Part shown: piece by piece, positions 3,108 to 31,390 of the stretch
Position numbering within the stretch: position 1 is the stretch's first letter
Layout of the letters: every line of letters starts with the position of its first letter
Origin: Candidatus Marinacidobacterales bacterium
GTDB lineage: Bacteria > Acidobacteriota > Vicinamibacteria > Marinacidobacterales > SMYC01
Assembly (NCBI GenBank): GCA_965224085.1
Contig: CBDCYI010000005.1
Location: 2,048,001 to 2,112,000 of the forward strand
Length of the DNA: 64,000 nucleotides
Reading direction: 5' to 3'
Program-made: the position numbers and the translations under genes
The notes under the pieces: model-generated
What the model was told of the DNA's origin: nothing
What the model saw: only the letters and a program-made list of their open reading frames with translations
Databases searched by the model: none

Positions 3108-5945
3108 ATGTTTAGTAGGTCATTCAAGTACTTGGTTAAATTCGTCCCCTTCATCCTGTTGCTTTTGGGAGCAGGCAGCGTCCTTGCGCAGAATGTCACC
3201 GGGACTCTCTATGGGAAGGTAATGGATGAATCTGGCCTTCTGGTACCTGGCGTCACCGTGACCGTGAGCAGCCCGCAGCTCATCCAAGGTGTCGAAGTTC
3301 GTGTCACGACAGCCACGGGAACCTATCGCGTTCCCAACCTCCCTCCCGGCACCTATTCGGTGAAGGCCGAGCTTTCGGGATTCCAAACCGTGACTCGCGA
3401 GGCCATCGTGCTGCTCACCGGCGCGTCACTGGCGATCGACTTTATGCTGAAACTGACGCCCGTTGCAGAGACCATCACGGTCACCGGCGAGTCACCCCTC
3501 GTCGACGTGAAGAGCACGAACCTGACCCGTCACATTGATAGCGACGTGGTGGAAAACATCCCTGTCGCCCGAAACTTCGCCGCTCTCCTCGAGACCGCCC
3601 CCGGCATCCTTGATAGCGAATATGGTTTCTCGCCCGCCCAAACCGTGCACGGCAGCTCGGTCCGAGACAACGTGTATAACTTGGATGGGGCCAACGCGAA
3701 CGACAACGCCGTGGGCTACATGTTCTCTGACATACCCTACGACATCATCGAGGAGGTCCAGATCACGAGCGGCGGAATCTCTGCCGAGTACGGGCAGGCC
3801 GCCGGCGCCGTCTTCAGTTTCATCACCAAGTCGGGCGGAAACGACTTCAGTGGCGGCGGGAACTTCTTCATCGTCAACGAAGACCTCCAAGGGAACAACC
3901 TCACCGACGAGCTGAGGGCACAGGTGCCGCAGGGAACGGAGGAAATAAAGAATCTGGATTTCGGAGTCTACGGGGGCGGCCCGGTGATAAAAGACAGGAT
4001 CTGGTTCTTTGGCAACCTTCGGCGGCTCGATATCGAGCGGACGCAGCCGGACTTCACCGCGCAAAACCCGACCATCACGGAAAACCAGTATTTCATCAAG
4101 GGTACCGCGCAGGTCAATCCCAGCAACAAGATCCAAGGCTCATACACGCAGCGAGATTTCAACCTTTTCCCCGGAAACGCCGGCTTCGCAAGGAATGACA
4201 ACCCGGAGACCTGGTCCAACAGCTTTCGGCCTTTCAAGGTCGCCTATCTGACCTGGACGAGCCTTCTCACCGAGAACACTTTTCTCGACGCGAGCTACAG
4301 CATCAACACGGCGCGGTTCAATACCACCTATGATAATTTCGAGGTGGGTTACTTCGACATTGCCACCGGAAAACACTCCGGTGGGATAACCGGCCCAATC
4401 GGCCCAACCCTCAACCGGGACACGAATTATCTGAGGGCGAGCGTGTCGACCTTTCAAGATGCGTGGGGGGGACGCTCGCACAACCTCAAGGTAGGCGTGG
4501 ATTACGCCTACGTTCCCTTCGCATGGACCCGGACACTCCCCGGCGACATGGTCCACCGCTTGAACAACGGCAGAGCCCACCGCATACGTTTGTACAACAC
4601 CCCGCTTGGATTTCTGGGACTCAACGTGACCCGCTGGGCGGGATATGTTCAGGATGAATGGACGCTCAACGATCGGGTGACGCTCAACCTCGGTGTCCGG
4701 CTCGAGTCGAACGAAGGCTGGGCGCCGGAGCAGCACGGCGGCGGCGGGCGATGGTTCCCGCGGGTCGACTTCGCGGAGGTGCGCGACCAAATGAAGTGGT
4801 TCAATACGGCCCCTCGGCTAGGGTTGATCTGGGATGCGACCGGCGACCAAAGGACTTCGGTCAAGTTCAGCTACTCCCGATACTATCAAGCGGCGCTCAG
4901 TCAGCATGTTTTCAACGGCGTCCGAAACGGGACCTCTTTCCAGGAGTATGACTGGATCGACCGCAACGGCGATCTCTTCTTCCAGGATGGCGAACAGGGA
5001 GCGCTCCGGTCGGATCTCCGTGCCAACACGAACATCTTCGACCCCGACCTGAAACAACCGTACGTGGATGAGTTCTATGTGGGAGTGGATTGGCAGGTAA
5101 AGAACAACGTCTCCCTGTCCGTGGCGGGGATCGTCAAGCGTGAGCGGAACCTCATGGAGACGATCGACCTTTCGAAGCCGTTTTCCGAGGCCTATAACCC
5201 CGTTAGCGTCACCAACCCGATCGATGGCCAGGCCATGACGATTTTTGCTTTGGATCCTGCCTTCCAGGGCGTTCAGCGCATCCGGACTCTCACCAATCCC
5301 ACCGATCCGATCACTCTCGTGCGGGACTACAAAGGGATCGATCTCGTCCTGCGGAAAAGGATGAGCGATGGATGGCAGTTTGAAGGATCGCTCGTTTTGA
5401 GCCGCTCGGAGGGAAATACTGGAAACAGCTTTGGAGCTAGCACCGGCGGCCGCCCCCTTTACGACAATCCCAATACTCTGATCAACATCGACGGTCCTCT
5501 CGACTTGGATACCCCCGTTCAGCTCAAATTCGCGGGAACCTATATCGCACCTTACGACATTTTGTTTAGCGCCTTCTACAGTGGGATCTCCGGCTTCCCC
5601 ATCAAACCACCGTCGGGTTTTCCGACGGATGTCCTCGGGGCCTATACCGTTCGCTTCACCCCCGCTGACAACCCTGGGATCGTTACGGAGAGCTTCATCG
5701 ATGTGGCGGGTCAGCCACGCGGCACCAACCGGACCGATTTCCGACACAAGCTGTCCTTCCGCGCCGAAAAGGAGTTCGTGATGGGTACCTGGAGGCTCGG
5801 GTTCATCGCGGACGTTTTCAACCTCTTCAACATCAGTACGGTCACGGCGGTACAGACCCTTCGGTTCGACCATCCGAATTTCCTGAAGCCGGCTATCATC
5901 GAGCTACCTCGCACCTTGCGGCTAGGCATTCGCATAAACTATTGA
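3108..5945 (+). CDS. TonB-dependent receptor with N-terminal carboxypeptidase-regulatory-like domain (TBDR1)
   Basis: Signal peptide; G.V.D.SG..VPGVTVT domain; plug motifs (ETITVTGESPLVD, SAEYG, ITKSGGN); QDEW strand; aromatic C-terminus (LRLGIRINY); RBS GAAGGAGA before ATG 3108. Confidence 0.92.
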   Translation: MFSRSFKYLVKFVPFILLLLGAGSVLAQNVTGTLYGKVMDESGLLVPGVTVTVSSPQLIQGVEVRVTTATGTYRVPNLPPGTYSVKAELSGFQTVTREAIVLLTGASLAIDFMLKLTPVAETITVTGESPLVDVKSTNLTRHIDSDVVENIPVARNFAALLETAPGILDSEYGFSPAQTVHGSSVRDNVYNLDGANANDNAVGYMFSDIPYDIIEEVQITSGGISAEYGQAAGAVFSFITKSGGNDFSGGGNFFIVNEDLQGNNLTDELRAQVPQGTEEIKNLDFGVYGGGPVIKDRIWFFGNLRRLDIERTQPDFTAQNPTITENQYFIKGTAQVNPSNKIQGSYTQRDFNLFPGNAGFARNDNPETWSNSFRPFKVAYLTWTSLLTENTFLDASYSINTARFNTTYDNFEVGYFDIATGKHSGGITGPIGPTLNRDTNYLRASVSTFQDAWGGRSHNLKVGVDYAYVPFAWTRTLPGDMVHRLNNGRAHRIRLYNTPLGFLGLNVTRWAGYVQDEWTLNDRVTLNLGVRLESNEGWAPEQHGGGGRWFPRVDFAEVRDQMKWFNTAPRLGLIWDATGDQRTSVKFSYSRYYQAALSQHVFNGVRNGTSFQEYDWIDRNGDLFFQDGEQGALRSDLRANTNIFDPDLKQPYVDEFYVGVDWQVKNNVSLSVAGIVKRERNLMETIDLSKPFSEAYNPVSVTNPIDGQAMTIFALDPAFQGVQRIRTLTNPTDPITLVRDYKGIDLVLRKRMSDGWQFEGSLVLSRSEGNTGNSFGASTGGRPLYDNPNTLINIDGPLDLDTPVQLKFAGTYIAPYDILFSAFYSGISGFPIKPPSGFPTDVLGAYTVRFTPADNPGIVTESFIDVAGQPRGTNRTDFRHKLSFRAEKEFVMGTWRLGFIADVFNLFNISTVTAVQTLRFDHPNFLKPAIIELPRTLRLGIRINY

Positions 5946-6177
5946 CGGCTGAATGGAATCGCTTGATTGTGGGTGAACCGAACCGGACCTGCGGGCGGAG
6001 CGTGCCGATCGAGTCGCGAATCCGCCCTCGCCGTTCGAGAAGGAGATAACGGCCAGGCGTATCAAGCTGTAAGATCTCGGGCTGACGGCCGACTTGACGC
6101 CGATCGTTTGTGAACGATCCGACGAGTGATTTGCACCGGGTGACCACTTCGCGACGGTTCGTCTCTACCGCCGGTTT

Positions 6178-6342
6178 CTAGTCCCCTGGAACAGAGGTTC
6201 GTGGCCTAAAGCTCGAGGTCATTTTGTGGGCTGGCAAGGCGTGACGACGAAGTCATATTGGGATATTTTGAGGAGAAACAACGCAGCCAGCGCGCAAAAG
6301 GGCCCGCGATTTAGGTTACGAATCTCTGTTCCAGGGGACTAG
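6178..6342. repeat. CTAG-bounded long-hairpin element (MITE-like), copy A
   Basis: ctagtcccctggaacagag...ctctgttccaggggactag terminal inverted repeat, extending imperfectly for ~55 bp. Near-identical copy at 17975-18194. Confidence 0.85.
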
Positions 6343-6552: not shown

Positions 6553-6566
6553 CGTTGGAGGATATT

Positions 6567-8210
6567 ATGGGAAAGCGATGCAAGGTCGCCACCCCTTTCA
6601 TAGTCGGAGTTCTTTTAGGAACCGTCCCCATGTGGAGTGGCGGAGCATTCGCGGAATCTTCCGGGTTTGTGGCCATCAATGTCGAAGAGATACGACTCGC
6701 CAACGGTTTTCGAGTCCTTCTCGTCGAGGATCATCGAGTTCCTCGCGTCGCCGCAAGCCTGTGGTACCGCTTGGGCGCCATTCGCGAATTGAGTGGTGAG
6801 CACGGCTCGACGCACTTCCTCGAGCACGCGGTGCATCAAGGGACCACCACCGTAGGCACCCGCAACTTCGAGGCGGAGAAACCAATCCTAAGGGAAATCC
6901 ACGAGACCGAGCAGAAGCTCGTGGAAGTCTGGAATCGAGAGCGCAACCGTCTTCGGGAACGGAATGTCTTCTATGACGAGCTTGACTGGCCGACGACACC
7001 CGAGATGGACAGCCTGCGGCAACGGCTCTACGAGCTCGAAGACCAGGACTCTCAATACCGCGAGTTCTGGGCCGAGTACAACTGGTATCGGCGCTACGGC
7101 GCCATCGCCCACGCCGATCCGGTGCCCGCGACGACGTGGAAAGAATATCTGGAAATCGATATCGACCTGCCGAAGGAGGCGATCGAGCTTTTGTTCCGCC
7201 TGGAGGCCGACCGGATGGTCAATGCGGTTCTACGAGGATGGGAGGCCCAGCGCTTTACCGTGCTGGAGCAGATTCTCAACCGACACGTGCTGCCAGAGAC
7301 GGGGCGCTTCTCAGAAGCGATCGATGGCGTCACCGGCCTGGCACACCCGGCGTACAACTCGGCCCAAGGGCATTTCCGGGATTTCGCCTACTACAATCGC
7401 ACCAGCATGCTGCGCGTCTACGACGACTACTTCGTGCCGAGCAATGCGACTCTCGCCTTGGTCGGAGACATCGCGCCCGGTGAGGCTCGCACTCTCGCCG
7501 AACGATATTTCGGCCAGCTCGCCCGAGGAGCGGAGTCACCGGCTCTCATGGATGTCGAAGCGGAACCGGTCCCGGGAGGCGCGGTGCGGCTCGACTGGCT
7601 AGAGCCCATGGACCCTCGGGTGATCCTTCGTTATCGCGTACCCGGGGTTGGTCACCCGGAAAGGCCGGTGTTCGACACCATCGCAGCCCTTACCCGTGGC
7701 CGTCACGGCCTCTTTGCGGCAAGTCTCGCGCGCAAGCCGGGCTCTCCTACGAACGTGGATTTCCAGGCTGCCCCGACACGCCTGGGATCCACTAACGTCA
7801 TCGATTTCATCGCGAAAGCGCGCCGCGACGAAGACGTTCCCGGCCTCGAAGAGACCCTGCTCGCGGTGCTGGACGACCTGCAAAAAAAACGCATCGACGC
7901 GAAGGCCCTGGAGCGAGCGCGGAAAGCCTTGCGCTTGGAGTGGGACCGGACTCGATCGGAGCGGAGAGAGCTCGCCAAAGCGCTCGGCCAATTTCAGGTG
8001 ATGGATAGCTGGGAAACGCTTCAGACCTTTATGGAAGCTCGGCTGAGCGCATCGGTCGAAGACATTCAACGAGCGGCGCGGCGATATTTTGTGCCTTCGA
8101 ACCGCGTCATCGTCATCGCGCGAGAGAGACCGCTTTCGCACGAGCGACCCGGCTCGCGCGCGACGACCTCGATGGCCCCAATGGCCTCAATGGAAGGAAA
8201 CGAGCCATGA
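6567..8210 (+). CDS. M16 (pitrilysin/insulinase) family protein, HxxEH subunit 1
   Basis: L.NG.RVLLVEDHRVP, GEHGSTHFLEH, YFVPSNATLALVGD; signal peptide; RBS GGAGG. Confidence 0.9.
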   Translation: MGKRCKVATPFIVGVLLGTVPMWSGGAFAESSGFVAINVEEIRLANGFRVLLVEDHRVPRVAASLWYRLGAIRELSGEHGSTHFLEHAVHQGTTTVGTRNFEAEKPILREIHETEQKLVEVWNRERNRLRERNVFYDELDWPTTPEMDSLRQRLYELEDQDSQYREFWAEYNWYRRYGAIAHADPVPATTWKEYLEIDIDLPKEAIELLFRLEADRMVNAVLRGWEAQRFTVLEQILNRHVLPETGRFSEAIDGVTGLAHPAYNSAQGHFRDFAYYNRTSMLRVYDDYFVPSNATLALVGDIAPGEARTLAERYFGQLARGAESPALMDVEAEPVPGGAVRLDWLEPMDPRVILRYRVPGVGHPERPVFDTIAALTRGRHGLFAASLARKPGSPTNVDFQAAPTRLGSTNVIDFIAKARRDEDVPGLEETLLAVLDDLQKKRIDAKALERARKALRLEWDRTRSERRELAKALGQFQVMDSWETLQTFMEARLSASVEDIQRAARRYFVPSNRVIVIARERPLSHERPGSRATTSMAPMASMEGNEP

Positions 8211-9706
8211 AAATGGAAAGAGAGAAAATTTACCGGGCTCTGGTGCCGATGGCGGCACTCACTCTGGCCACCGCTCTTTCGCTGGCGGGCTGTGCTGGCG
8301 GATCGAATGGCGAAGAGGAGATATTACCAGGGCGCTCTCGTCCTTTGTTGGAGCACGACTGGCCTCATCCTCGTGACTTTGAGTTTGCCCCCAGCACTTT
8401 CACACCGCCAGATGCTGCTGGAGCTTTGGTGAACACGACGACGGGCCTTCGCGCTTACATCATCCCTGATGCATCGGACCCGCTGGTGCGAGTTACCGCG
8501 GCGGTGCCGTTGGGCCGACTCTATGAGCAGTCGGGCGAAGCCGGAGCTTCGAGGCTCTTGACGGAGCTTTTGACTCGTCACGGCCCGGCTGATCCAAACC
8601 GGCCTCTTTCGCTGCGCCTGGAGTCCCTGGGAACGGCTCTCCAGATGGAGGAGGATCTCGACGTGACGCAGATCTCAGTAGAGGTGCTGGCCGAGGACTG
8701 GCAGGAAGGACTGGCCGTGCTGATCGATGTCCTCCGGCGCCCTGACTTCGAAAATAGCGTTCTCCGTCACTATCGTACCGGTCCCGGGTACTCGACCCCT
8801 ACTTCGCGTGCTTCGGGAAGTGGATTCCAGCCTAAAGTGGAGCTCGAGAGAATTCTCGCTGGCTACCCGCTCGCGCCGGCCGATCCAGGCCTATCGGTGA
8901 CGAGCCAAGCGCTACGCGCCCTGGCGGGGCGTACGCTGCGGCCAAACAGGGTCGTCCTCGGCGTTTCAGGCAACGTGCCGAGGGCCGAGGTGGAGGCAGC
9001 GTTGAACAAGTTAAGCGAAGGCTGGGACACCACAGAAGAGCCGCTCCGAGTCGCCGAGCTGACCGGAGAAGCAAGAGTCCAAGAAAAGCTCCACACCATT
9101 GATGTGCCAAGCCTCGAGGGCTGGATTGCCACCGGCCGCCCGGTAGGGCCGGTTCCCGAATCGGAGCGGGCCGCTGTCGCGGTGATGGCTCACATCCTCG
9201 GGACGCGCCTCAACATTGCCGTCCGCGAGATCCGCGGGCTTGCCAATCACACCGTTTTCGTGCTCCCGGACACGGCGAGCGGAGCCGGTCTCTGGCATGT
9301 GAGAACGGGCGGTCGCACGGAGGCTGTGGCACCTCTCGTCAAGTTCTGCTGGGAAGAAATCGAGAAAATGCACCAACCTACCGAGCCCATCACCGAGGAC
9401 GAGATCGAACAGGCCAAGGGCGCGTTGGTGCTGAGTAGCTGGCAGGCAGCTCTCGACGGCGCCCGGCAGGCGAGCGCGACTTACGCGGTGGAAACTGTAC
9501 GGCGCGGGGCTTTGGACGCACTGCTTCAGTGGCCCGAAGCCGTTAGAGCGGTCACGGTCCAGCAGGTCAAGGAGGTTGCGCAAAAGTACCTGAGCGCGGA
9601 AGAGATGGTTACGGTTGTCGTCGGTCCAATCGATAAAATCCGAGAGGCACGTCACCCCCGATGGCCCGTCGATTTGAGCGCGCTTGAATCGACTCCCACG
9701 TCTTGA
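8207..9706 (+). CDS. M16 family non-catalytic partner subunit, predicted lipoprotein
   Basis: Lipobox SLAGC; M16 fold motifs (REIRGLA, VT.QQVK.VAQKYL...MVTVVVGP); no HxxEH; ATGA overlap with upstream gene. Confidence 0.85.
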   Translation: MKMEREKIYRALVPMAALTLATALSLAGCAGGSNGEEEILPGRSRPLLEHDWPHPRDFEFAPSTFTPPDAAGALVNTTTGLRAYIIPDASDPLVRVTAAVPLGRLYEQSGEAGASRLLTELLTRHGPADPNRPLSLRLESLGTALQMEEDLDVTQISVEVLAEDWQEGLAVLIDVLRRPDFENSVLRHYRTGPGYSTPTSRASGSGFQPKVELERILAGYPLAPADPGLSVTSQALRALAGRTLRPNRVVLGVSGNVPRAEVEAALNKLSEGWDTTEEPLRVAELTGEARVQEKLHTIDVPSLEGWIATGRPVGPVPESERAAVAVMAHILGTRLNIAVREIRGLANHTVFVLPDTASGAGLWHVRTGGRTEAVAPLVKFCWEEIEKMHQPTEPITEDEIEQAKGALVLSSWQAALDGARQASATYAVETVRRGALDALLQWPEAVRAVTVQQVKEVAQKYLSAEEMVTVVVGPIDKIREARHPRWPVDLSALESTPTS

Positions 9707-9740
9707 CGAGCGCTCGAAGCTGAACCGCGGAGGCAACGCA

Positions 9741-11339
9741 ATGAGGAAAAGCACTACGGCATTGGCCCTTTGGGTGATCTTCCCTTTTTGTTTGACTGGA
9801 GGTGTCGAGCGGCTCGAGGCGGCCACAGATTCCATACAGGAGATCGTGCTCGAAAACGGGTTTCGAGTGCTGGTCGTCGAGAAAACCGCCGTGCCCCGGG
9901 TGGCTGCGAGTCTCTGGTATCGGGTAGGAGGGATAGCCGAAGCTCAAGGTGAGCACGGCTCCACCCACTTTCTCGAGCATTTGATCCATCAGGGAACAAC
10001 GACCGTGGGCACTAGAGACTTCGCGGCGGAAAAACCCATTTTGAGAGAGATCTATGAAACGGAACAGAAGCTGATTGAAGTTTGGAATCGGGAACGTAAT
10101 CGCCTGAGGGAGCGAAATGTCTTTTACGATGAGCTTGACTGGCCTACGACGCCGGAGATGGTGAAGTTGCGCCAGCGGCTCTACGAGCTGGAGGACCAAG
10201 ATTCGGAGCTTCGAGAGTTCTGGGCCGAGTACAACTGGTACCGACGTTACGGCGGCCGTGCTCGGCACGCCGATCCCGTGCCCGCGACGACGGGAAACGA
10301 GCATATGGACATCTCTCTCGACCTCCCTAAAGAAAACCTCGAGCTCCTCTTCCGGCTCGAGGCGGAGCGGATGGTCAATGCGGTTTTGCGCGGTTGGGAG
10401 GCTCAGCGATTCACCGTTTTCGAGCAGATCCTCAACAGCCACAGCCGGCCGGAGAGAGGGAGATTCTATCAGGCAATTAACGGAGTAACGGGGCTCGCCC
10501 ACCCGATATACCTGTCCGCGGGAGGGCATATGCGGGACTTCGCCTACTTCAATCGCGCCAGTATGCTCCGGATGTACGAGAAGTATTTCGTCCCCGGAAA
10601 TGCCACCCTCGTTCTGGTTGGTGACGTGTCGCTCGGGCAGGTTCGCTCCCTCGCCGAGCGCTACTTCGGTCGCATCCCCAAAGGAGCCGAGGCGCCGGCC
10701 CGGATGGACTACGAAGCGGAGCCGGTTCCCGGAGGCGCCGCGCGGCTCGACTGGTTGGAACCGCTGGATCCACGAATCATCATTCGGTTCCGCATTCCCG
10801 GCGTCGGGCACCCCGACCGGCCAGCGTTCGATGCCCTTGCGGCGGTGTTGCGAGGCCGTCACGGGGTGCTGGCTCGCGCCTCGAGGTTAAGGGAGGGTGG
10901 ATCGCGCGACCCATTTCGCGAGGTCGACTTTCAAGCATCGGCGCCGCGTTCTGGCTCGCCCCGCACCATCAGCCTCGTGGCCCGGGCGCGACGGGATGAC
11001 GATCTTCCCAAGCTCGAGCAAATGATGCTCGCGGCTTTAGAGGAGCTGCGCCAGGGAAAACTGGCTTCAGGGGATTTGAACCGGGCGCGAAAAGCGATGC
11101 GCCTGCAGTGGGAGCAGATCCGCTCGAGCCGTGGCAATCTGGCTTCGGAGCTCGGACGGTTCCAGGTGATGGACAGTTGGAGAACGCTCGAGCCCTATAT
11201 GGACGCGCGAGAGAAGGCTTCCATTGAAGACATCCGCCGCGTCGCCGAGCGCTATCTCGTTCCGGCCAACCGCACCATCGCCACGTCGCGTCGAAATCCC
11301 GCACCGAACGCTCTCCTGGCACGCACAAGCCCGGAGTAG
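9741..11339 (+). CDS. M16 family protein, HxxEH subunit 2
   Basis: HFLEH motif; paralog of 6567-8210; RBS GGAGG before ATG 9741. Confidence 0.9.
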   Translation: MRKSTTALALWVIFPFCLTGGVERLEAATDSIQEIVLENGFRVLVVEKTAVPRVAASLWYRVGGIAEAQGEHGSTHFLEHLIHQGTTTVGTRDFAAEKPILREIYETEQKLIEVWNRERNRLRERNVFYDELDWPTTPEMVKLRQRLYELEDQDSELREFWAEYNWYRRYGGRARHADPVPATTGNEHMDISLDLPKENLELLFRLEAERMVNAVLRGWEAQRFTVFEQILNSHSRPERGRFYQAINGVTGLAHPIYLSAGGHMRDFAYFNRASMLRMYEKYFVPGNATLVLVGDVSLGQVRSLAERYFGRIPKGAEAPARMDYEAEPVPGGAARLDWLEPLDPRIIIRFRIPGVGHPDRPAFDALAAVLRGRHGVLARASRLREGGSRDPFREVDFQASAPRSGSPRTISLVARARRDDDLPKLEQMMLAALEELRQGKLASGDLNRARKAMRLQWEQIRSSRGNLASELGRFQVMDSWRTLEPYMDAREKASIEDIRRVAERYLVPANRTIATSRRNPAPNALLARTSPE

Positions 11340-11380
11340 AACGTACCGCGAGACGGTGTGAGGGGTGGAGGACGGAGATC

Positions 11381-12967: not shown

Positions 12968-13046
12968 CCTTACCGTTACCAACACCCACAACCAAGCTGG
13001 GTCAATCGCAGGCCCCCATTCTCCGGATCCCACCCGTGCCGGTAAG

Positions 13047-17859: not shown

Positions 17860-17974
17860 TCTAGCTGGAGGACCGGAGGAGATAGAAAGAGTTCGGGTCT
17901 GGTCTGAACGGAAACATGGCCACCTCGCCATTGTGTCGCCGTGCGCGATGATGAGGCGGGGTGGCCATTGCACT

Positions 17975-18194
17975 CTAGTCCTCTGGAACAGAGGTTCGTG
18001 GCCTAAAGCTCGAGGTCATTTTGTGGGCTGGCAAGGCGTGACGACGAAGTCATATTGGGATATTTCGAGGAGAAACAACGCAGCCACCAGAGCATCATTC
18101 AAGCCGCGGTGATTCACGCGCTGACCAATGACACGATCGTAGCGGGCAAAAGGGCCCGAGATTTAGGTTACGAATCTCTGTTCCAGGGGACTAG
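17975..18194. repeat. CTAG-bounded long-hairpin element, copy C (copy A plus a 55-bp insert)
   Basis: Near-identical to 6178-6342 apart from the insert ccagagcatc...acgatcgta. Confidence 0.85.
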
Positions 18195-18328
18195 CTCGTT
18201 GCTCGAGAGGATGATTGCCAACCGGGTTCTTGTTGGCATCGAGATTGCGATACACCAGGTCTACGATCATCCAGAGTCTGCGTGACTCGAGGAGGACCGG
18301 GCCTCGCAAGACAAGAAAGGAGGCAGTC

Positions 18329-21762: not shown

Positions 21763-21777
21763 CTGAGGCTCCGCGAC

Positions 21778-23277: not shown

Positions 23278-23328
23278 CCCTCGGTCGCGAAAAGATGGGC
23301 GAGGTCTCAACGAGAGGCCGGACTTTTC

Positions 23329-24864
23329 TCACCGCTCGGCGTCGGTAGGCTGGAGGGCGTCGAGATCTACCGGCCACCGCGGATGGCGGGCCGCCCGAAT
23401 CTTCTCCAGGGGGCCGACGACCACCGTGACCATCGCCGCTGGATCCAAATATCTTTGTGCCGTCGCTTTCACTTGGTCGGCGTTCACCGCCTGCACCGAC
23501 GCCGGCCAATCGAGCAATCGCTCGACTCCGCCACGTCGGACGGTCTCGACGGCATAGGTCGTGCTGGCCTGACGGGCACCGTCCAACGCTTTCTGCCAAG
23601 CGCCCAGAATGAGAATCCCCTTGGCTCGCTCGATCTCCTCGTCGGTGATGGTATCGGTCGGAGAATGAATCCGCCTCACTTCCTCGAGACAGAATTTGAC
23701 GAGCGGCGCCACCGATTCCTGCCGGCCGCCCGTCCGGATATGGAGCAGCCCGGCCCCGCTTCCGGTCTCCGGCAAAACAAAGATCGTATGATTCGCCAGC
23801 CCGCGCATCTCTCGTACGGCAATGTTCAGCCGCGTGCCGAGGATCTCTTTGAGCACCGCCAGTGGCGCCTGTTCGGACTCTGGGACGGGTTCGATCGCAC
23901 GACCGATAGCGATCCAGCCTTGCCTTGGAACGACCCATGCGCCCAGGCTCGGCTCGTCGAGCGTCTGGAGCCAACGAGAGGGTGGTGGAGGTTGGCGAAA
24001 CGAGCGCGTCTCCACGACACCCGCTGCACTCTCCCAGCCATCGGTGAGGTCGTTGAGGGCGGCGTGGAGATCGGCACTTGGCACACTACCGCCGACGCCG
24101 AACACGACACGGTTGGATCTCAGAGTACGCGCCGCCAGTGCCCGGACGGCTTCGGGCCTCACCGGAATCCCTGGATCCGGCGGCGCGAGAGGATAACCTC
24201 CCATCATGCGCTCGAGCTCGACCTTGGGTCGGAAATCGACCTCCTCGACGCGGGAGTTCGGGGTCGAATAGCCAAGCCCGGTGCGATGCCCGCGGAGAAG
24301 AACCTCATCCAGGGGTCCTCGCAACAGATCCACCACTAAGCCAAGGCCTTTGAGCCAATCGTCCGGAAGCACTTCCAAGGAGACCTGCGTGAAGTCCAGC
24401 GCCTCTTCCACCTCCAGCTCCGTTCCGAGCTCGTCCAAACGATCCGGAAGAGACCCCTGGGAGGTTCGGGCCCTGCGCCCGGCCACAATTCCAGTCAGCA
24501 CGCGCGCCGCGCCGGCTTCGCCATCTCGCTCGTAGAGCCGGCCCAGCGGCAGCGCTGCCGTGATACGTACCACGGGATCCGTGGTATCCGGGATCACATA
24601 GGCACGAACGCCGCTCGCGCTCGTGACCAGGGCTTCCTCCGCATCGGGCGGTTCGAACGTGGTCGGGGTGAACGTGTAGTCGCGTGGGTGCGGCCAGTCA
24701 TGTTCGACCAGCGGCCGGGAGCGGCCGGGCAACGTGTCCCCCTCACGGTCGAGAGCACCGCCACAGCTCATCGTTGCCCAAGCCGCCATCGCCACGGCCA
24801 GTCCGGCTCTCGTGGCGCCTTTCGGTGGAACGAGCCTCGTTGCCAGAACGGTCGCGATTGTCAT
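23329..24864 (-). CDS. M16 non-catalytic partner subunit, predicted lipoprotein
   Basis: Cys after a hydrophobic stretch (TMSC); paralog of the other two partner subunits. Confidence 0.85.
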   Translation of the reverse strand: MTIATVLATRLVPPKGATRAGLAVAMAAWATMSCGGALDREGDTLPGRSRPLVEHDWPHPRDYTFTPTTFEPPDAEEALVTSASGVRAYVIPDTTDPVVRITAALPLGRLYERDGEAGAARVLTGIVAGRRARTSQGSLPDRLDELGTELEVEEALDFTQVSLEVLPDDWLKGLGLVVDLLRGPLDEVLLRGHRTGLGYSTPNSRVEEVDFRPKVELERMMGGYPLAPPDPGIPVRPEAVRALAARTLRSNRVVFGVGGSVPSADLHAALNDLTDGWESAAGVVETRSFRQPPPPSRWLQTLDEPSLGAWVVPRQGWIAIGRAIEPVPESEQAPLAVLKEILGTRLNIAVREMRGLANHTIFVLPETGSGAGLLHIRTGGRQESVAPLVKFCLEEVRRIHSPTDTITDEEIERAKGILILGAWQKALDGARQASTTYAVETVRRGGVERLLDWPASVQAVNADQVKATAQRYLDPAAMVTVVVGPLEKIRAARHPRWPVDLDALQPTDAER

Positions 24865-24868
24865 CGCT

Positions 24869-26494
24869 CTACCGCCCCTCTGTCGGAAGCCCGCTCGAGG
24901 GTTCAACGCTCTCATCACTTCCGGGATTTCGATGCGCCGTCACGATGACGCGGTTGGAGCGGACCAGGTATCGCCTCGCTGCGCGTTCGATATCCTTCAC
25001 CGAAACTCGCTCCCGCGCTTCAACGTGAGATTGCATCGTGTTCCAGCTGTGCATCACCTCGAACCGTCCCAATTCATAGGCGAGGTCAGCGCGACTCGAG
25101 CGGATCTGATTCCAGTCGAGCCGTAGCTCCCTGCGCGCCTGCTCGAGCGTCTTCGGGTCGACTTGACCCTGACGCAACTCTTGCACCACCTCCAATATGG
25201 CGCTCTCGATTGCCCCGAGGTCCTCGTCCCCGCGCCCCATGCCGACGAGGTCGATCGCGCTCGGCGAGCCGGTGCGCGACGCGGATACCCGAAAATCGAC
25301 GCCGGTTGCAAGCTCTCGTTTGTCGCTGAGCTTCCGGTTCAGCATGCGTCCGACCAGCGCTGCGATCGTGTCGAAAACCGGCCGATCGGGATGGCCGACG
25401 CCGGGGATGCGGTAGCGAACGATGACCCTCGGATCCACGGGCTCCAGCCAGTCGAGCCGGATGGCACCCCCAGGAACCACTTCCGCCTCGAGATCCATCC
25501 AGGCGGGTGGCTCCGCTCCCCTCGGGATCCGGCCGAAATATTGCTCGGCGAGAGGTTCGACCTCGCTCCGGGTAATGTCCCCCACGAGGACGAGGCTCGC
25601 GTTGTTGGGTACGAAGTAATCATCGTACATGCGCAGCATGCTGGCCCGACTGTAGAACGCGAAATCCCTCAAATGGCCGCCGGAGCGCCGGAACATCGGA
25701 TGTACGACTCCGGTAACTCCGTTCATCACCTCATAGAACCTTCCCCTCGGATCGGCGGCCCGTTGGCGTCCTCCCAGGATCTGCTCGAGCACGGTAAACC
25801 GCTGGGCCTCCCATCCCCTCAGGACCGCGTTGGCCATGCGATCCGCCTCCAGCCGAAACAGAAGCTCGATGTTCTCCCTGGGCATGTCGAGGTCGATCTC
25901 GAGCGCCTCGTGCCCGGTCGTGGCCGGCACCGGATCGGTATGTCTGCTGACAGCCCCGTACCGACGATGCCAGTTGTATTCGGCCCAGAATTCCCTGTAT
26001 TGCGCATCCTCGTCCTCCAGCTCGTACAATCGCTGCCGCAACTGCTCGATTTCGGGGGTCGTCGGCCAGTCGAGGTCGCCGTGAAAGACGTCGCGCTGCC
26101 GGAGGCGGTTTCTCTCACGGTTACGGGCGGCCAGGAGCTTCTGCTCGGTCTCGTAGATCTCGCGCAAGAGGGATTTCTCAGCCTCGAAGTTGTTCGTGCC
26201 AACGGTCGTGGTCCCCTGGTGCACCATGTGCTCGAGGAAGTGGGTCGAGCCATGCTCGCCAATACGCTCCTGCAACGAGCCCAGGCGGTACCACAGACTC
26301 GCTGCGACGCGAGGGACCCGGTGATCCTCCACGACTAACACCCGGAATCCGTTGTCGAGCACGAGCTCTTGAACGTCGACCAGGGGAAAAGACGAAGACG
26401 GCTCGACGGAGGACTGGCTGTCGCTCGATCGCACGGAGGCTAGCCCTATGAGGAGCGTGGTGGCGACGGCACTCGTCAGGAGGAAGGGTCGCAT
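24869..26494 (-). CDS. M16 family protein, HxxEH subunit 5
   Basis: HFLEH motif; signal peptide; paralog of subunits 1-4. Confidence 0.9.
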   Translation of the reverse strand: MRPFLLTSAVATTLLIGLASVRSSDSQSSVEPSSSFPLVDVQELVLDNGFRVLVVEDHRVPRVAASLWYRLGSLQERIGEHGSTHFLEHMVHQGTTTVGTNNFEAEKSLLREIYETEQKLLAARNRERNRLRQRDVFHGDLDWPTTPEIEQLRQRLYELEDEDAQYREFWAEYNWHRRYGAVSRHTDPVPATTGHEALEIDLDMPRENIELLFRLEADRMANAVLRGWEAQRFTVLEQILGGRQRAADPRGRFYEVMNGVTGVVHPMFRRSGGHLRDFAFYSRASMLRMYDDYFVPNNASLVLVGDITRSEVEPLAEQYFGRIPRGAEPPAWMDLEAEVVPGGAIRLDWLEPVDPRVIVRYRIPGVGHPDRPVFDTIAALVGRMLNRKLSDKRELATGVDFRVSASRTGSPSAIDLVGMGRGDEDLGAIESAILEVVQELRQGQVDPKTLEQARRELRLDWNQIRSSRADLAYELGRFEVMHSWNTMQSHVEARERVSVKDIERAARRYLVRSNRVIVTAHRNPGSDESVEPSSGLPTEGR

Positions 26495-26589: not shown

Positions 26590-28320
26590 TCAGAATCCGT
26601 TGGCATGACCGAGGCGTCGCGGATCGGTCACCCCATGAAGTTTGCCGGCATCATCGCGCCAGACAAGTTGGATCGAGCCGGTATGCCAGTTGTACGGTCC
26701 AAGCTCCTCGATCTGGATCCCGCGCGCCGAAAGCTCCTTGCGCAGGGCATCGGGAATGCGGGACTCGATGCGAAGATACCCGACGTTGCCAAAGTCTCGG
26801 TCCACTCCCCTGTCACGGTACGCCCAGAAGCGCGGCGCGTCGATGGCCTCTTTCGGCGGCATACCGAAGTCGAGGATGTTGATCAGAACCTCGGTAACCG
26901 GCTGCGACGGCAATCCCGGTGAGCCGATCGCCAGCCAGGGCTTGCCGTCCTTCGCGATCATCGTCGCGGTCACGTGCGTCGAAAAACGTCGGCCGGGTCC
27001 GCTCGTGCGCTGCCATCTTCCGCTGCCGGTAGATCTCACGCCGTCGACGAACACACCCGGCATACCACCATGCCCGGTATGAAGATAAGTAATCCAGTTG
27101 CCCTCGGCGTCGACGATGACGTTGTGATTGCTGTCGTCGCCGTAGGGGTCGACCTTACTCCAGGGTCCGGCTGGTCGCAGCGAAGCATAATCATCGGTAG
27201 CTCTCGCCGGCGCGAGGTCCGCTTTCGGCATGCTGGTCCGCACGAACTCGGCTCCCATCTTGCCGTACTCCTTCGAAAGCCATAGCGCCGACGGGATGTG
27301 GAAGCTGCGCGGATCCCCCATGGCATAGCGAATCTCGTTCTCCACCCGGCCGAGCGCGCGCACCATGATCTCCAGCGTTTCTGCCGACTCCGTGTAATGT
27401 CCCGCTTTCTTCAGGTCAAAGTTCTCCAGGATGTTCAGGTTGTAGCCAAGATTCAGACCCCCGGCCACCGGAGGCGGCTCACTGATGATCTCGTGGCCCC
27501 GGTACGTAAAACGCACCGGCTCCTGCCAGAGCACCTCGTAAGCGCTCAGATCTTCCAGGCTCACGCGCCCGCCACGCTTGTTCGCTTCCTTCACGAACTT
27601 CTGGGCCCACGCTCCCTTGTAGAGGTAATCCGAACCCTCCGAGGCTACCTTGCGGAGAGTTTCTGCGAGCGCCGGCATCTTCCAGCGGTGCCCCACCGGC
27701 ACCAGGTGCCCTTCGGGCATGTAGAACTCCCGGGCCTCTTTGTTCTCCTTGATCAAATCCCTGTTTGACCAATTGGAATAGTTGTTGCCATACATGAAGG
27801 AGGTGACGACGAACCCTTCCTCGGCGGTGGCGATGGCAGGCTCGACATAACTGGCCCACTCCTGCGTGCCGAAGCGCTTCCACAGTTGCTCCAGCGCGAG
27901 CACCTTGCCCGCAATCGAAACCTTCATCGGGTCGCCGTGCTCGCCGCGCTCGGCGAGAGGCTTTGCGCCATAAGCATTGAAGGCGTAATACTTCCCGGTT
28001 GCCGCCTCATAGTAGAGCCCGGTCATCGCGCCAAAAAGAGAGACTTGATGGTAGTCCACGACGTTTTGGAGGAACGTCGCGGTGATGGCCGCATCCACGG
28101 CATTACCACCTTCACGGAGGACCTCGAGCGCCGTCTCCGTGACGATGTGGAGTTGCGTGCTCACCATCACCTTGTCGCCTATCGCTTCGGGTTTAGGGCC
28201 CTGATTGAGCAGCGGATCTCTGGGATCGGTGGGTCCCGGCTCAATCTGGCCCATCGCTGCCGGCACCATGCCCGTGAAGATGAGAGTCAAGACTAGGGCC
28301 GGTAATGTGACCGAACGCAT
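26590..28320 (-). CDS. Gamma-glutamyltransferase-like Ntn hydrolase (GGT-like 2)
   Basis: Paralog of 18329-20068 with the same GGT motifs; RBS GGAGG before ATG 28320. Confidence 0.88.
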   Translation of the reverse strand: MRSVTLPALVLTLIFTGMVPAAMGQIEPGPTDPRDPLLNQGPKPEAIGDKVMVSTQLHIVTETALEVLREGGNAVDAAITATFLQNVVDYHQVSLFGAMTGLYYEAATGKYYAFNAYGAKPLAERGEHGDPMKVSIAGKVLALEQLWKRFGTQEWASYVEPAIATAEEGFVVTSFMYGNNYSNWSNRDLIKENKEAREFYMPEGHLVPVGHRWKMPALAETLRKVASEGSDYLYKGAWAQKFVKEANKRGGRVSLEDLSAYEVLWQEPVRFTYRGHEIISEPPPVAGGLNLGYNLNILENFDLKKAGHYTESAETLEIMVRALGRVENEIRYAMGDPRSFHIPSALWLSKEYGKMGAEFVRTSMPKADLAPARATDDYASLRPAGPWSKVDPYGDDSNHNVIVDAEGNWITYLHTGHGGMPGVFVDGVRSTGSGRWQRTSGPGRRFSTHVTATMIAKDGKPWLAIGSPGLPSQPVTEVLINILDFGMPPKEAIDAPRFWAYRDRGVDRDFGNVGYLRIESRIPDALRKELSARGIQIEELGPYNWHTGSIQLVWRDDAGKLHGVTDPRRLGHANGF

Positions 28321-28457
28321 AGCTACCTCCTCTCGGGGAATGCTTTGCTCCCGAGGCTCTTGGAAAAGTTTTTCCAGAATGAAGATCGATCTCAAACGAG
28401 CGCCCTTAGAAAAATTTCTGTCGGGCTTTCTCCTGGTGGTTAGGATGTCTCATTGGA

Positions 28458-28493: not shown

Positions 28494-28549
28494 CCGATTC
28501 TCGCCGGCTGCCTGCCGAGACCCTTGCTCGCGTGGCCGGCACCGAGGCG

Positions 28550-31390
28550 CTAAAAACGGAGGCGCACCCCAATTTGCAGGGTGCGCGGCAGCTCGATGAC
28601 GGCCGGTTTCCCAAAATTGGAGAGGTCGAATCTCAAGGTCTGGACAGCCGTGACGGTGCTTACATTGAGCACGTTGAAGACGTCGGCCGTAAGATCCAAG
28701 TTCAAACGGCTGCCAAGTACAATCGCCTTTTCGGCACGGAACGATAGCAGGTGCAGAAAGTCTTGTCGGTTCGTTCCTCTCGGCTGACCGGCGAACTCGA
28801 TGAAGCTCTCTACCACGATGGCCGGGTTATCCTCCGCGAACACACGAATCGTGGGGGAGCCCAGGACGTCCGATGGGAAACCCGAGTCGGGCTTGATGGG
28901 GAAGCCGGAGATCCCCTGGTAGAACGCGCTCACCATGATTTGGTAAGGAGCCTGGTAGCTGCCGACGAGCTTGATCTGGACGGGAGCGTCCAAGTCGAGC
29001 GGACCGTCAATATTGATCAAGGTGTTCGGGTTGTCGTAGATTTGGTGTCCTCCCCAGGTGGCGCCGAAACTGTTGCCGATATTGCCGTCGGACCGGCCGA
29101 GGTTGAGCGAGCCAGTAAACTGCCAGCCGTCGCTCATCCGCTTGCGAGCGGCGATCTCGAGTCCTTTGTAGTTCCGCTCGAGAGGCACCGGATCGGTGGG
29201 GGTGGTGAGGTAGCGGATTCGTTGCGCCCCCACGAATTCCGGTTTCAGAGCGAAGGCCGTCATAGACTGGCCATCGATCGGGTTGATGACGTCGAGCGGA
29301 TCATAGGCAGAGAAGGGCCTGCCTATGTCTACGGTCTCCAGGATGTCCCGGTCGCGTTTGAAAATCCCGCTCACCGAGATGGCAAAGTTGTTTCCGATCT
29401 GCTGCTCGACTCCCACGTGGAGCGCGTCCGTGTAAGGTGCCTTCAAATTGGGATCGAACTGATCCAGATTTGTCGAGAAATTTCGGCGCAGGGTCCCCTG
29501 TTCGCCGTCCTGGAAGAAGAGATCGCCGTTAAGGTCATTCCAATCGTACTCCTGAAAGCTGGCCGCGTTCTGGAGGGCGAGCGACATGTGCTGATTCATG
29601 AGCGCCACGTAATATCGGCCAAAATTCAGCTTAAAGGAGGTCCGCTGGTCACCCTTGAGATCCCACACCAGCCCCAGCCGAGGGGCGACGGTGAACCAAT
29701 CGATCTGATTGCGTTGCTCGGCGAAGGTCACCTCGGGAAACCACCGACCCCCACCGCCCGTCTGCTCGGGGTGGAACCCCTCACTCCATTCGAACCGGGC
29801 CCCCAGATTCAGGGTGACCCGATCTTTCAGCGTCCATGCATCCTGGACGAACCCCGCCTGGCGGTTGACGTGCCGGCCCTGCAGCACCGGGAGCTGGTAA
29901 AGCCGAATCCGGTGTGCCGCTCCGTTCCTGTACCGGTGAAGCATTTCATCGGGGAGTTCGAATCGCCTCCAAAGCGGTGCAAATTCGTACTCGAAACCCG
30001 CCTGGAGATTGTGTTCGCCTCCCAAGAAGTCCCCGCTGAAGTAAGAGAAGTTGGCCTTGATATTTCTTTTCTCTCGGTTTTTGTAGTTGTTGACCGTGCG
30101 TGTCCATCCGCAGCAATCTAGCCCAGTGCCAATGTCCCGACCGCCCGATATCTCGGAATTGACAAAACCGCCCCCGCTCTGCTGCAAGGTCTGGACAAAC
30201 TTTATGTCCATATAGGTGTTTTCATTCAGCACCTGTGTCAGGGACACAAAAATGATCTTCTGATACCGGTCAGCGTCACGCCACGTCTCGGGCGAATCGT
30301 TGGTTCGAAAGCTGGCGCCGGTCGGAAACTCCGTACGGTCGCGCTGGGTGTAGGAGCCCATGAGGCGCGTATTCTCCGTTAGCTGCGTGGTGACCTTGAC
30401 GAAGCCTTGAGTGTCGGAAACGTCTATATCTCTGGCTGTGAAGTCCGGACGCGTGAAGTCGATGTCAAACCTGCGGATATTCCCGAAATACCAGACCTTA
30501 TCCTGCAGGATCGGACCGCCCAGGGTGAAGCCGTAATTCACGTTCTTGTTGATCGTCGTTCCCTGTTCGAGTCCCTGGTCGATGAGCTCGTCGGTGAGGT
30601 TGTCCCCTTGTAGCCCATCATTCTGTAAGAAAACGTTGACATTACCTTCGTGTTGGTTTCCACCCGACTTGGTCACGAAGTTGAACACCGCGCCGCTCGC
30701 CTGACCGAACTCGGCAGAAATGCCTCCGCTAGTGATCTGAACCTCGTCGAGAATGTCGTATGGGAGGTCGGTGAACGTGTAGCCCACCGTGTTATCGTTA
30801 ATGTTTGCGCCGTCGACGTACGAGACGTTGTCTCGAACCGAACCTCCGTGCACGGTTTGCGCCGGAGCAAAGGCGTATTGGCTATCGATGACACCCGGAG
30901 CGGTGACAAGGAGCTCGTCAAAGCGGTTTGCCGAGGGGAGATTCTCCACAATGGCACTGTCGACGATGCGCTGCGTCTTGGTGTTCCTCACATCGATGAT
31001 TGGCGATTCGCCAGTTACCGTGACGGTCTCCTGAACGGCACTAATGTTCAAGGTAACATCAATCGCTAGCGATGCTCCTGCCTCCAGAACGATCTCCTCG
31101 TGGGAAGTCGTTTGGAATCCTGGCAGCTCGATTTTTACCCTATAGACGCCAGGGGGAAGACTTGGAACACGATAAGTCCCTTCATTGCCGGTGACTCGGA
31201 CCTCCGTGTCCTTGATGAGCTGCGGACTGGATACGGTTACCGTCGCACCGGGGATACGGCTACCGCTCGCGTCGACGACCCTGCCGTAGAGGGTTCCGGT
31301 GAGTTCCTGCGCAAGGACACTACCTGCTCCCATCAGCAATAGGATGGACAGGACAAAACTAACCGAATTCATCACGAATCTATTGGACAT
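28550..31390 (-). CDS. TonB-dependent receptor (TBDR3)
   Basis: Full-length paralog of TBDR1, ending LQIGVRLRF; RBS AAGGAGA before ATG 31390. Confidence 0.92.
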   Translation of the reverse strand: MSNRFVMNSVSFVLSILLLMGAGSVLAQELTGTLYGRVVDASGSRIPGATVTVSSPQLIKDTEVRVTGNEGTYRVPSLPPGVYRVKIELPGFQTTSHEEIVLEAGASLAIDVTLNISAVQETVTVTGESPIIDVRNTKTQRIVDSAIVENLPSANRFDELLVTAPGVIDSQYAFAPAQTVHGGSVRDNVSYVDGANINDNTVGYTFTDLPYDILDEVQITSGGISAEFGQASGAVFNFVTKSGGNQHEGNVNVFLQNDGLQGDNLTDELIDQGLEQGTTINKNVNYGFTLGGPILQDKVWYFGNIRRFDIDFTRPDFTARDIDVSDTQGFVKVTTQLTENTRLMGSYTQRDRTEFPTGASFRTNDSPETWRDADRYQKIIFVSLTQVLNENTYMDIKFVQTLQQSGGGFVNSEISGGRDIGTGLDCCGWTRTVNNYKNREKRNIKANFSYFSGDFLGGEHNLQAGFEYEFAPLWRRFELPDEMLHRYRNGAAHRIRLYQLPVLQGRHVNRQAGFVQDAWTLKDRVTLNLGARFEWSEGFHPEQTGGGGRWFPEVTFAEQRNQIDWFTVAPRLGLVWDLKGDQRTSFKLNFGRYYVALMNQHMSLALQNAASFQEYDWNDLNGDLFFQDGEQGTLRRNFSTNLDQFDPNLKAPYTDALHVGVEQQIGNNFAISVSGIFKRDRDILETVDIGRPFSAYDPLDVINPIDGQSMTAFALKPEFVGAQRIRYLTTPTDPVPLERNYKGLEIAARKRMSDGWQFTGSLNLGRSDGNIGNSFGATWGGHQIYDNPNTLINIDGPLDLDAPVQIKLVGSYQAPYQIMVSAFYQGISGFPIKPDSGFPSDVLGSPTIRVFAEDNPAIVVESFIEFAGQPRGTNRQDFLHLLSFRAEKAIVLGSRLNLDLTADVFNVLNVSTVTAVQTLRFDLSNFGKPAVIELPRTLQIGVRLRF

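Follow-up and report, generated by a model that had tools for sequence, protein, structure and literature searches.

Three paralogous TonB-dependent receptor modules with a predicted two-chain M16 peptidase in a Marinacidobacterales genome

The subject of this report is a stretch of 64,000 nucleotides from the genome of a Candidatus Marinacidobacterales bacterium (assembly GCA_965224085.1, contig CBDCYI010000005.1, positions 2,048,001 to 2,112,000), called the window below. It holds three modules, each with a gene for a TonB-dependent receptor (TBDR) followed by genes for peptidases of family M16. The peptidase proteins are of two kinds, a catalytic type named M16a and a non-catalytic type named M16b. 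On the forward strand, module 1 has the order TBDR1-M16a-M16b-M16a-M16a-CRTAC1 and module 2 the order TBDR2-GGT-M16a-M16b, where GGT stands for a protein that resembles gamma-glutamyltransferase. Module 3 lies on the reverse strand and is mirrored, with the order TBDR3-GGT-M16a-M16b. Gene content was taken from the listing of open reading frames (ORFs), from Pfam, and from BLAST among the paralogs of the window. Together these bear out the gene order given in an earlier reading of the DNA, referred to here as the original prediction. Coordinates are collected in Table 1.

All three receptors have a CarboxypepD_reg domain, a Plug domain, and an OMP_b-brl_4/TonB barrel (Pfam). We take this combination to match the architecture of Oar. 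Signal peptides and lipoboxes, which had also been predicted, were assessed by eye. Sec-like N-termini are found on the M16a and GGT-like proteins, and a cysteine follows a hydrophobic stretch on M16b. The true start of TBDR3 is probably an ATG about 30 codons downstream of the listed start, and that of GGT1 probably lies near 18326.

It is uncertain whether the CRTAC1-type protein at the end of module 1 is part of the system. Four further FG-GAP/UnbV genes occur elsewhere in the window, so this gene may belong to a separate repeated family. Four CRTAC1-type paralogs with FG-GAP and UnbV_ASPIC domains, this one among them (3-1409, 12939-14756, 35111-36946, and 37615-39825), are 27-41% identical.

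Table 1. Features of the three modules, numbered from the first nucleotide of the window, and of the related locus L028 (Vicinamibacterales metagenome-assembled genome), in that locus's own numbering and with its genes on one strand.
Feature	Position	Strand	Description
TBDR1	3093..5945	+	950 aa, intact; CarboxypepD_reg N-domain, Plug, OMP_b-brl_4 barrel (Pfam)
MITE-like element, two tandem copies	6177-6343 and 6344-6553 (diverged)		in the 610-nt gap after TBDR1
M16a_1	6555..8210	+	secreted catalytic M16 subunit; HFLEH at 87-91, Glu230/Glu238
M16b_2	8207..9706	+	non-catalytic M16 subunit; without HxxEH; lipobox-like LAGC (Cys29)
M16a_3	9684..11339	+	second catalytic-type subunit, HFLEH
M16a_4	11381..12967	+	third catalytic-type subunit, HFLEH
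CRTAC1-type protein	12939..14756	+	FG-GAP repeats and UnbV_ASPIC (Pfam); last gene of module 1
TBDR2 pseudogene	15246..17859	+	N-part in frame 3 to ~16220; C-part in frame 1 from ~16204
MITE-like element, third copy	17974..18195		between TBDR2 and GGT1; 96-98% identical to 6177-6343
GGT1	18215..20068	+	secreted GGT-fold Ntn amidohydrolase, Ser type (SNH for TTH)
M16a_5	20152..21762	+	catalytic-type, HFLEH; in-frame TGA at 21451-21453
M16b_6	21778..23277	+	non-catalytic, lipoprotein-type; 100% identical to database protein P0004
M16b_7	23329..24918	-	module 3 non-catalytic subunit, lipoprotein-type; 100% identical to database protein P0011
M16a_8	24869..26494	-	module 3 catalytic subunit, HFLEH
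GGT2	26590..28395	-	secreted GGT-fold Ntn amidohydrolase; Ser422-Asn-His at the nucleophile position; LHTGHGG
TBDR3	28550..31483	-	intact TonB-dependent receptor, 977 aa as listed
L028, M24	307-1902		peptidase gene
L028, TBDR	2048-5857		with CarboxypepD_reg
L028, S9/DPP-IV	6007-8334		peptidase gene
L028, M16a	8331-10001		
L028, M16b	9896-11551		
L028, Sortilin/BNR protein			follows M16b

The two M16 proteins are told apart by the motif HFLEH, which is present in all five M16a proteins of the window and in none of the three M16b proteins. All 18 aligned M16a sequences share H87, E90, H91, E230, and E238. In the comparison with 4nnz, the last of these falls on the Glu-ligand region; it lies 147 residues beyond H91. 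The spacing from the motif to the Glu is about 75-80 residues in M16B entries and 97-110 in M16C entries (excerpt of PMC12731061), and M16a thus departs from the M16B rule. The reason for the long spacing is a helical insert, which in M16a_1 spans about 70 residues between the motif and the Glu ligand. A monomer model of moderate confidence (pLDDT 68.2) places its helices at 105-134 and 149-166. Judging from the alignment, the Glu zinc ligand itself is probably kept.

M16b has conserved features of its own. Cys29 is invariant in all 12 aligned sequences, and so are L40, P41, G42, R45, H50, W52, and P55 of an N-terminal segment that reads LPGRSRP..HDWP. The probable lipoprotein has no Asp at position +2. 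From its sequence, M16b is probably anchored to a membrane by a lipid.

The two proteins do not match each other at E 1e-5. In a sequence search of the PDB, the best solved relatives of M16a are 4nnz and the active subunit of the Sphingomonas heterodimer (3amj_C, 3ami), and that of M16b is the inactive subunit 3amj_B. FusC (6b03/6b05/6brs) and PqqL (6ofs) match M16a weakly, with E values of 6e-5 to 7e-4. A complex of residues 34-530 of M16a_1 with residues 36-499 of M16b_2 was modeled from our own alignments. Its score is 0.92, and the best of three controls reached 0.00. In a calibration that is approximate, 116 of 157 solved complexes reach the mark for this score, as do 2 of 215 mismatched pairs. 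At least 95% of contacts agree between runs, and the partners have pLDDT values of at least 88. Confident predicted contacts include the M16a insert (109-189) and the N-terminal segment of M16b (40-65). Both elements are special to this M16 subfamily.

The heterodimer proposed in the original prediction is therefore well supported in silico, by the matches to 3amj_C and 3amj_B, by the complex model with its controls, and by gene adjacency: in 46 of the 49 related loci described below, the gene directly upstream of M16b is M16a. By sequence and model, the pair looks like an obligate two-chain enzyme of the M16B type. The precedents cited by the original prediction also exist, both for M16B heterodimers (excerpt of PMC12731061) and for the receptor and protease pairs Fus and YddB/PqqL (excerpt of PMC6793856).

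Known examples of such heterodimers are SPH2681/SPH2682 of Sphingomonas (PDB 3amj) and TTHA1264/TTHA1265 of Thermus. As in the window, a subunit with HxxEH and an inactive subunit of about 50 kDa are encoded side by side. The non-catalytic half of M16B enzymes has an R/Y pair in its C-terminal domain (excerpt of PMC12731061). The proteins of the window differ from the known heterodimers in the gap of 147 residues between H91 and E238, with its helical insert, and in the lipobox-like cysteine and conserved, insert-contacting N-terminal segment of M16b. In addition, a single partner gene stands beside three catalytic ones in module 1.

The third component, found in modules 2 and 3, is the GGT-like protein. 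Pfam G_glu_transpept matches these proteins with E values of 1e-69 to 1e-79. A model of GGT2 (pLDDT 81.7) resembles the E. coli GGT precursor 2e0w in Foldseek (E 1e-35, TM 0.71-0.86), and further structural matches are 4y23, 2nlz, LmbA, and HpxW. The fold is thus common to the window proteins and to the GGT family (MEROPS T03; E. coli Ggt, PDB 2e0w/2dbu). A disordered linker that stops directly ahead of the nucleophile strand is another feature in common with GGT precursors: in the GGT2 model a low-confidence loop (397-418) stops just short of a strand whose first residue is Ser422. This is expected of an autoprocessing precursor in the N-terminal nucleophile (Ntn) class.

The active site differs from that of true GGTs. 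In an alignment with the annotated Ggt of E. coli K-12, Ser-Asn-His replaces Thr391-Thr-His, and this replacement is invariant in 25 of 25 relatives. Gly483 is kept, and Gly484 is replaced by L, V, S, or F. Where E. coli has PLSSMSP, the window proteins have RRFSTHVTA or RRVSPNSTG, so that the PLSSMXP motif is missing. No conservation is seen where Arg114, Asn411, Gln430, and Asp433 align. The equivalents of Thr409 and His393 are conserved, and a motif LHTGHGG is invariant. R114, N411, Q430, and T409 of E. coli Ggt are presumed here to have roles in the active site. Among GGTs, Thr391 and Gly483/Gly484 are invariably conserved, and TTH and PLSSMXP are recognized motifs (excerpt of PMC8062742). 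Likewise, the scores against NCBIfam TIGR00066 (220.1 and 240.1 bits) are below the cut-off of 357.85.

The Ser-type proteins of this fold are numerous. A profile search of 1.84 billion representatives gave 2642 proteins at E <=1e-30, with scores dropping from 947 bits to about 330 within about 20 entries. Among the 150 best representatives, the residue in the nucleophile column is Ser in 70, Thr in 59, and a different one in 8, and 13 have a gap there. On the basis of these alignments, Ser-type GGT-fold proteins are a broad and, it seems, unstudied part of the superfamily. Of the GGT-like hydrolase in the original prediction, the Ntn fold has held up and the defining features of GGT have not. 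Judged from the model and the sequence, the protein is an Ntn amidohydrolase and no true gamma-glutamyltranspeptidase. The active-site comparison also suggests that the automatic annotation label "gamma-glutamyltransferase" is wrong for the Ser-type branch.

Between paralogs of the three modules, protein identity is 56-68% (BLAST). For instance, TBDR1 and TBDR3 are 58% identical over their full length. This level of identity indicates old duplications and not chance. Because TBDR-(GGT-like)-M16a-M16b is found three times in this order at such identities, the linkage must have outlasted a long divergence. DNA repeats show modules 2 and 3 to be mirror images around about position 23300. No GGT remnant was found in module 1 by tblastn. 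The gap after TBDR1 contains copies of an element that resembles a miniature inverted-repeat transposable element (MITE). This element is non-coding, has terminal inverted repeats of about 33 nucleotides, and occurs in the window only as the three copies of Table 1. Folded as RNA, it has an energy of -99.2 kcal/mol (z -12.9). Since the copies at 6177-6343 and 17974-18195 are 96-98% identical and the flanking genes only about 70%, the insertion is recent. The element after TBDR1 is an insertion and stands outside the design of the modules.

Module 2 is a decaying copy. In a translated search, residues 4-324 of TBDR1 match frame 3 over 15240-16220, and residues 398-950 match frame 1 over 16204-17856. 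The frame switch in the TBDR2 translation comes after "...FFGNVRWFDVERTQ". The spacing of DNA repeats between TBDR1 and TBDR2 falls from 12153-12156 to 11911-11914. About 73 codons have therefore been deleted from TBDR2 with a change of frame. Such a lesion is unlike a typical base-calling slip, and by its sequence TBDR2 is taken to be a pseudogene. One of its stretches, 17179-17564, is 88% complementary to 28845-29230 in TBDR3, against 73-82% for the rest of the matched stretches. This stretch may be a gene-conversion tract.

M16a_5 of the same module is interrupted by an in-frame TGA, at a position where the paralogs have Ala or Glu. Conservation continues well, and in frame, beyond the codon. 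A sequencing error or a recent mutation may account for the TGA. A selenocysteine was considered and rejected, as the paralogs have no Cys at this position. With these lesions in TBDR2 and M16a_5, both absent from the original prediction, only two of the three modules are intact. The threefold layout of the original prediction is confirmed, with module 2 as a decaying copy.

Other genes of the window look interrupted as well. An SBP_bac_5 peptide-binding protein gene is broken into two parts (44214-44861 and 45051-45884). An M20 ORF in the same stretch (43270-45884) covers only positions 45-204 of a profile of 206. The FG-GAP ORF at 35111-36946 and a separate UnbV_ASPIC/AhpC-TSA/TPR ORF at 33359-35089 look like a split gene. 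The genes at 43270-45884 and 33359-36946 are either pseudogenes or assembly errors, which bears on the TGA of M16a_5. Genes for M24 and DUF885 proteins, both with signal peptides, are intact, and M20 and peptide ABC genes are also present. The "downstream" genes named in the original prediction are therefore only partly sound: M24 and DUF885 are, and the split peptide-binding gene and the partial M20 gene are not.

Relatives in other genomes were collected by a pattern scan with M16b, one genome per species. The scan gave 49 loci from Gemmatimonadota, Acidobacteriota (Vicinamibacteria, with "Marinacidobacter-" names), and two metagenome-assembled genomes (MAGs) labeled Gammaproteobacteria. Neighboring genes were called on the translated loci with hidden Markov models of the window's own proteins. 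The three loci in which M16a was not found directly upstream of M16b are two that end before the upstream region (L034 and L041) and one 44-residue fragment (L049). No other neighbor is common to more than 15 loci. Peptidases that recur are M28, tricorn/S41, and S9, and 9 of the 49 loci contain an M28 homolog cluster.

A tree of M16b was built with IQ-TREE in quick mode (LG+G4) from 95 rows, namely the three window copies, 45 of the 120 listed matches, and 47 locus copies. The three window copies fall in a starred 33-row set of deep, divergent groups, together with L028 and L029. Most loci form a separate starred clade of 62 rows, made up of stand-alone pairs. The scan thus returned mostly this different, stand-alone clade, and is a weak test of the window's own. 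In the databases, M16b relatives at about 50-62% identity are numerous, and M16b_2 has one at 97%. The proteins identical to M16b_6 and M16b_7 lie on a contig of 8,700,493 bp. In the tree, the M16a/M16b pairs of L018 and L023, the two MAGs labeled Gammaproteobacteria, nest inside a Gemmatimonadota clade, which suggests mis-binning or horizontal transfer.

An example of the same design outside the window is L028. Its genes, listed in Table 1, overlap or nearly touch. The design is the same as in the window modules, with a dipeptidyl-peptidase in the place of the GGT-like gene. On the other strand of L029, the contig edge holds the N-terminus of a TBDR, and a MacB-type permease intervenes. In L037 and L045, which belong to the other clade, a TBDR and an opposite-strand TPR gene are followed by M28-M16a-M16b.

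Co-location was also estimated by a proxy, the exact size of the longest contig of each protein, for contigs below 30 kb and the best 120 matches per search. TBDR and GGT-like matches share five sizes (6312, 8024, 8666, 11378, and 11853; jitter-null mean 0.34); on two of these five contigs there are two GGT-like proteins apiece. GGT-like and M16b matches share two sizes (7567 and 9818; jitter-null mean 0.42). To the extent that shared sizes stand for shared contigs, this suggests that a TBDR and a Ser-type GGT-like gene are a recurring pair.

A recurring design emerges. A TBDR of the Oar/SusC type is combined with an exo-acting hydrolase that varies (Ser-type GGT-fold, S9, or M28) and with a two-chain M16 enzyme that probably has a lipid anchor. 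Such a set fits the import of peptides or small proteins and their stepwise degradation in the periplasm. We hold it an even chance that the modules are paralogous units for acquiring peptides or small proteins as nutrients, in which a TBDR works with Sec-exported enzymes. The substrate class, the direction of transport, the location of the enzymes, and co-transcription are parts of this reading that we infer.

In the proposed mechanism, the transporter would import oligopeptides or small proteins into the periplasm. There, a membrane-tethered clam-shell "peptidasome" would cleave the imported peptides, with M16a as the soluble catalytic subunit and M16b as the lipid-anchored one. The Ntn amidohydrolase of modules 2 and 3 may strip an amide-linked group that is terminal or unusual, a role that would fall in relatives to an S9 dipeptidyl-peptidase or an M28 aminopeptidase. 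Finally, the signal-peptide-bearing M24 and DUF885 proteins and the nearby peptide ABC system could complete the breakdown.

A known relative of this arrangement is protease-associated import. In Fus (FusA/FusC of Pectobacterium) and in YddB/PqqL of E. coli, the gene of a TonB-dependent transporter (TBDT) adjoins that of a secreted M16 protease, and such systems import ferredoxin for iron (excerpt of PMC6793856). That excerpt describes protease-associated import in Proteobacteria only, and in its text "Acidobacteria" and "heterodimer" occur 0 times. The linkage of M16 and TBDT genes is shared by the window, where it occurs three times, and by L028; in all, only 7 of 49 related loci have it. 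Import with subsequent cleavage in the periplasm would likewise be common to both. The differences are more numerous. The window receptors are of the Oar/SusC type with CarboxypepD_reg; for TBDR3, no PDB sequence matched at E up to 0.01 in a set that includes FusA and YddB. The Fus and PqqL proteases are single chains of about 900 residues (about 100 kDa), whereas the window enzyme would consist of two chains of about 500-550 residues with a lipoprotein partner and a helical insert. Modules 2 and 3 add an Ntn amidohydrolase, and the modules show no sign of iron regulation. By this comparison, the modules are analogous to protease-associated import systems, but lack the FusA-like receptor and the FusC-like single chain. 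Most likely this is a known theme in a new form, rather than a new kind of system.

Another likeness is with SusC/SusD loci. In these, as in the window, a TBDT with an N-terminal carboxypeptidase-regulatory-like domain leads a group of secreted or lipid-anchored hydrolases that serve a single nutrient class. RagAB of Porphyromonas gingivalis, for example, imports peptides (excerpt of PMC11817032). In SusC/SusD systems the lipoprotein is a lid protein, whereas in the window it would be an M16 subunit. No SusD/RagB-type Pfam match was found in any of the 15 module proteins. A search of the literature on acidobacterial combinations of TBDR, peptidase, GGT, and CRTAC1, which took in few subscription journals, found no description of the arrangement.

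Several observations weigh against reading the modules as acquisition units. Synteny elsewhere had been set beforehand as a test of the original prediction, and the outcome is divided: the adjacency of M16a and M16b recurs, and the linkage of the other genes mostly does not. A TBDR homolog lies within 10 kb in only seven of the loci (L005, L012, L027, L028, L029, L037, and L045). It is upstream on the same strand only in L028, L037, and L045, and downstream in L027. A GGT homolog lies within 10 kb in 1 of the 49 (L008), where it is canonical, full-length (Pfam), and on the other strand. The stand-alone M16b clade implies that the pair is not intrinsically linked to a transporter. By the contig-size proxy, TBDR and M16b matches share no size below 30 kb (jitter-null mean 0.27), and co-location on the size-matched contigs is in any case deduced rather than seen. 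Scans of the window for promoters and terminators gave sites no more frequent than in shuffles; within that expectation falls a terminator-like hairpin (28586-28562) that overlaps the 3' end of TBDR3. The decay of module 2 may mean that the copies are redundant. The complex model, for its part, may owe its high score to resemblance to known structures of M16B heterodimers such as 3amj. Taken as a whole, the import and processing system of the original prediction stands as regards the M16 heterodimer. The link between TBDR and enzymes stands in all three modules of the window and in a small number of relatives, L028 among them, and does not stand more widely.

These points raise the question of whether the genes are neighbors by chance. 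In this case a TBDR/GGT-like pair would have come to lie beside a housekeeping M16a/M16b pair, and the block would then have been copied by segmental duplication. The M16a/M16b pairs that stand alone in most loci agree with such an origin, and so do the five contig sizes shared by TBDR and GGT-like matches beside none for TBDR and M16b. The mirror duplication of modules 2 and 3, the lack of a GGT-like gene in module 1, and the decay of module 2 point the same way. However, the copies are old, with order and orientation kept at 56-68% identity, and L028 independently links a TBDR, a different peptidase, and M16a/M16b. Moreover, GGT-like and M16b matches share the sizes 7567 and 9818, and the window M16b copies lie in a clade apart from the stand-alone type. 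An origin by chance is thus considered unlikely.

Transport might also run in the other direction, so that Oar-type TBDTs export neighboring enzymes or place them on the surface, and peptides are cleaved outside the cell. The receptor architecture of CarboxypepD_reg, Plug, and OMP_b-brl_4, presumed above to be that of Oar, would suit this, and the probable lipoprotein M16b, without Asp at +2, could sit in the outer membrane or at the surface. The model for such export is Oar of Myxococcus xanthus with the protease PopC (excerpt of PMC6434023). PopC is a different kind of protease, though, and nearly all characterized TBDTs import. The popC gene is not known to adjoin oar in Myxococcus xanthus. 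Furthermore, stand-alone M16a/M16b pairs without a TBDR in most of the 49 loci evidently need no dedicated exporter. Export is accordingly thought quite improbable.

Slightly less probable still is iron piracy of the Fus kind, or uptake of a specific natural product or siderophore. Here one metalloprotein or acylated peptide would be imported, and the M16 and Ntn enzymes would release the cargo or the acyl group. The import of ferredoxin by TBDT and M16 systems is a precedent (excerpt of PMC6793856), and Ntn hydrolases include acylases. The substitution D433N gives E. coli GGT cephalosporin acylase activity (excerpt of PMC8062742); the window enzymes are without that Asp. On the other hand, the comparison of TBDR3 with solved TBDTs, FusA and YddB included, gave no match at E up to 0.01, and the M16 enzyme, with its two chains, does not resemble FusC. 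The Pfam matches of the window include no genes for iron, TonB/ExbBD, siderophores, or biosynthesis. In relatives the partner enzyme varies between GGT-like, S9, and M28, which is a better fit to general peptide breakdown than to a single dedicated substrate.

The reading as units for acquiring peptides can be carried further, to a class of "peptide utilization loci" of its own in Acidobacteriota and their relatives. Such loci would be defined by an Oar-type TonB transporter, a two-chain M16 enzyme with an exchangeable M16a, as the three M16a genes of module 1 would suggest, and an M16b tether, and a new Ser-type amidase that would cut a non-glutamyl amide bond of the imported peptides. This extension is a doubtful one. 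If it were true, the Ser-type enzyme would be a new amidase activity, and the M16b tether would couple cleavage to transport.

Acidobacteriota and Gemmatimonadota are abundant and poorly understood degraders, and little is known of how they take up nutrients derived from protein. If the modules do acquire peptides, the principle of a transporter combined with an M16 protease would reach beyond Proteobacteria, and beyond iron piracy to general feeding on peptides. Two large groups of enzymes would also gain a testable role. These are the insert-bearing M16 pairs with a lipoprotein partner, and the Ser-type GGT-fold enzymes.

The modules are flanked by TPR genes at 1199-2707 and 31836-33299, which are transcribed divergently from TBDR1 and TBDR3, respectively. 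In L037 and L045, too, a TPR gene adjoins the TBDR. These flanking genes were considered as a shared component and rejected, as they are only about 24% alike, which amounts to generic TPR similarity.

Scans for RNA genes in the window gave no Rfam family at its gathering score and no tRNA. On the reverse strand, a formate-dehydrogenase-type molybdopterin subunit is split between 51392-51970 and 48956-51379, with 4Fe-4S and cytochrome b561 subunits after it. A TGA selenocysteine codon, rather than damage, probably accounts for the break. An AbiEii-type nucleotidyltransferase toxin domain of a type IV toxin-antitoxin system (Pfam), unrelated to the modules, lies at 53612-54244 on the same strand. 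Finally, two identical tandem copies of an insertion sequence occupy 58267-61646. The unit is 1690 nucleotides long and codes for a DDE_Tnp_1 and DUF772 transposase of 454 residues. A third related transposase gene at 62019-63680 is followed by a further copy of a 300-nucleotide repeat (63673-63972).

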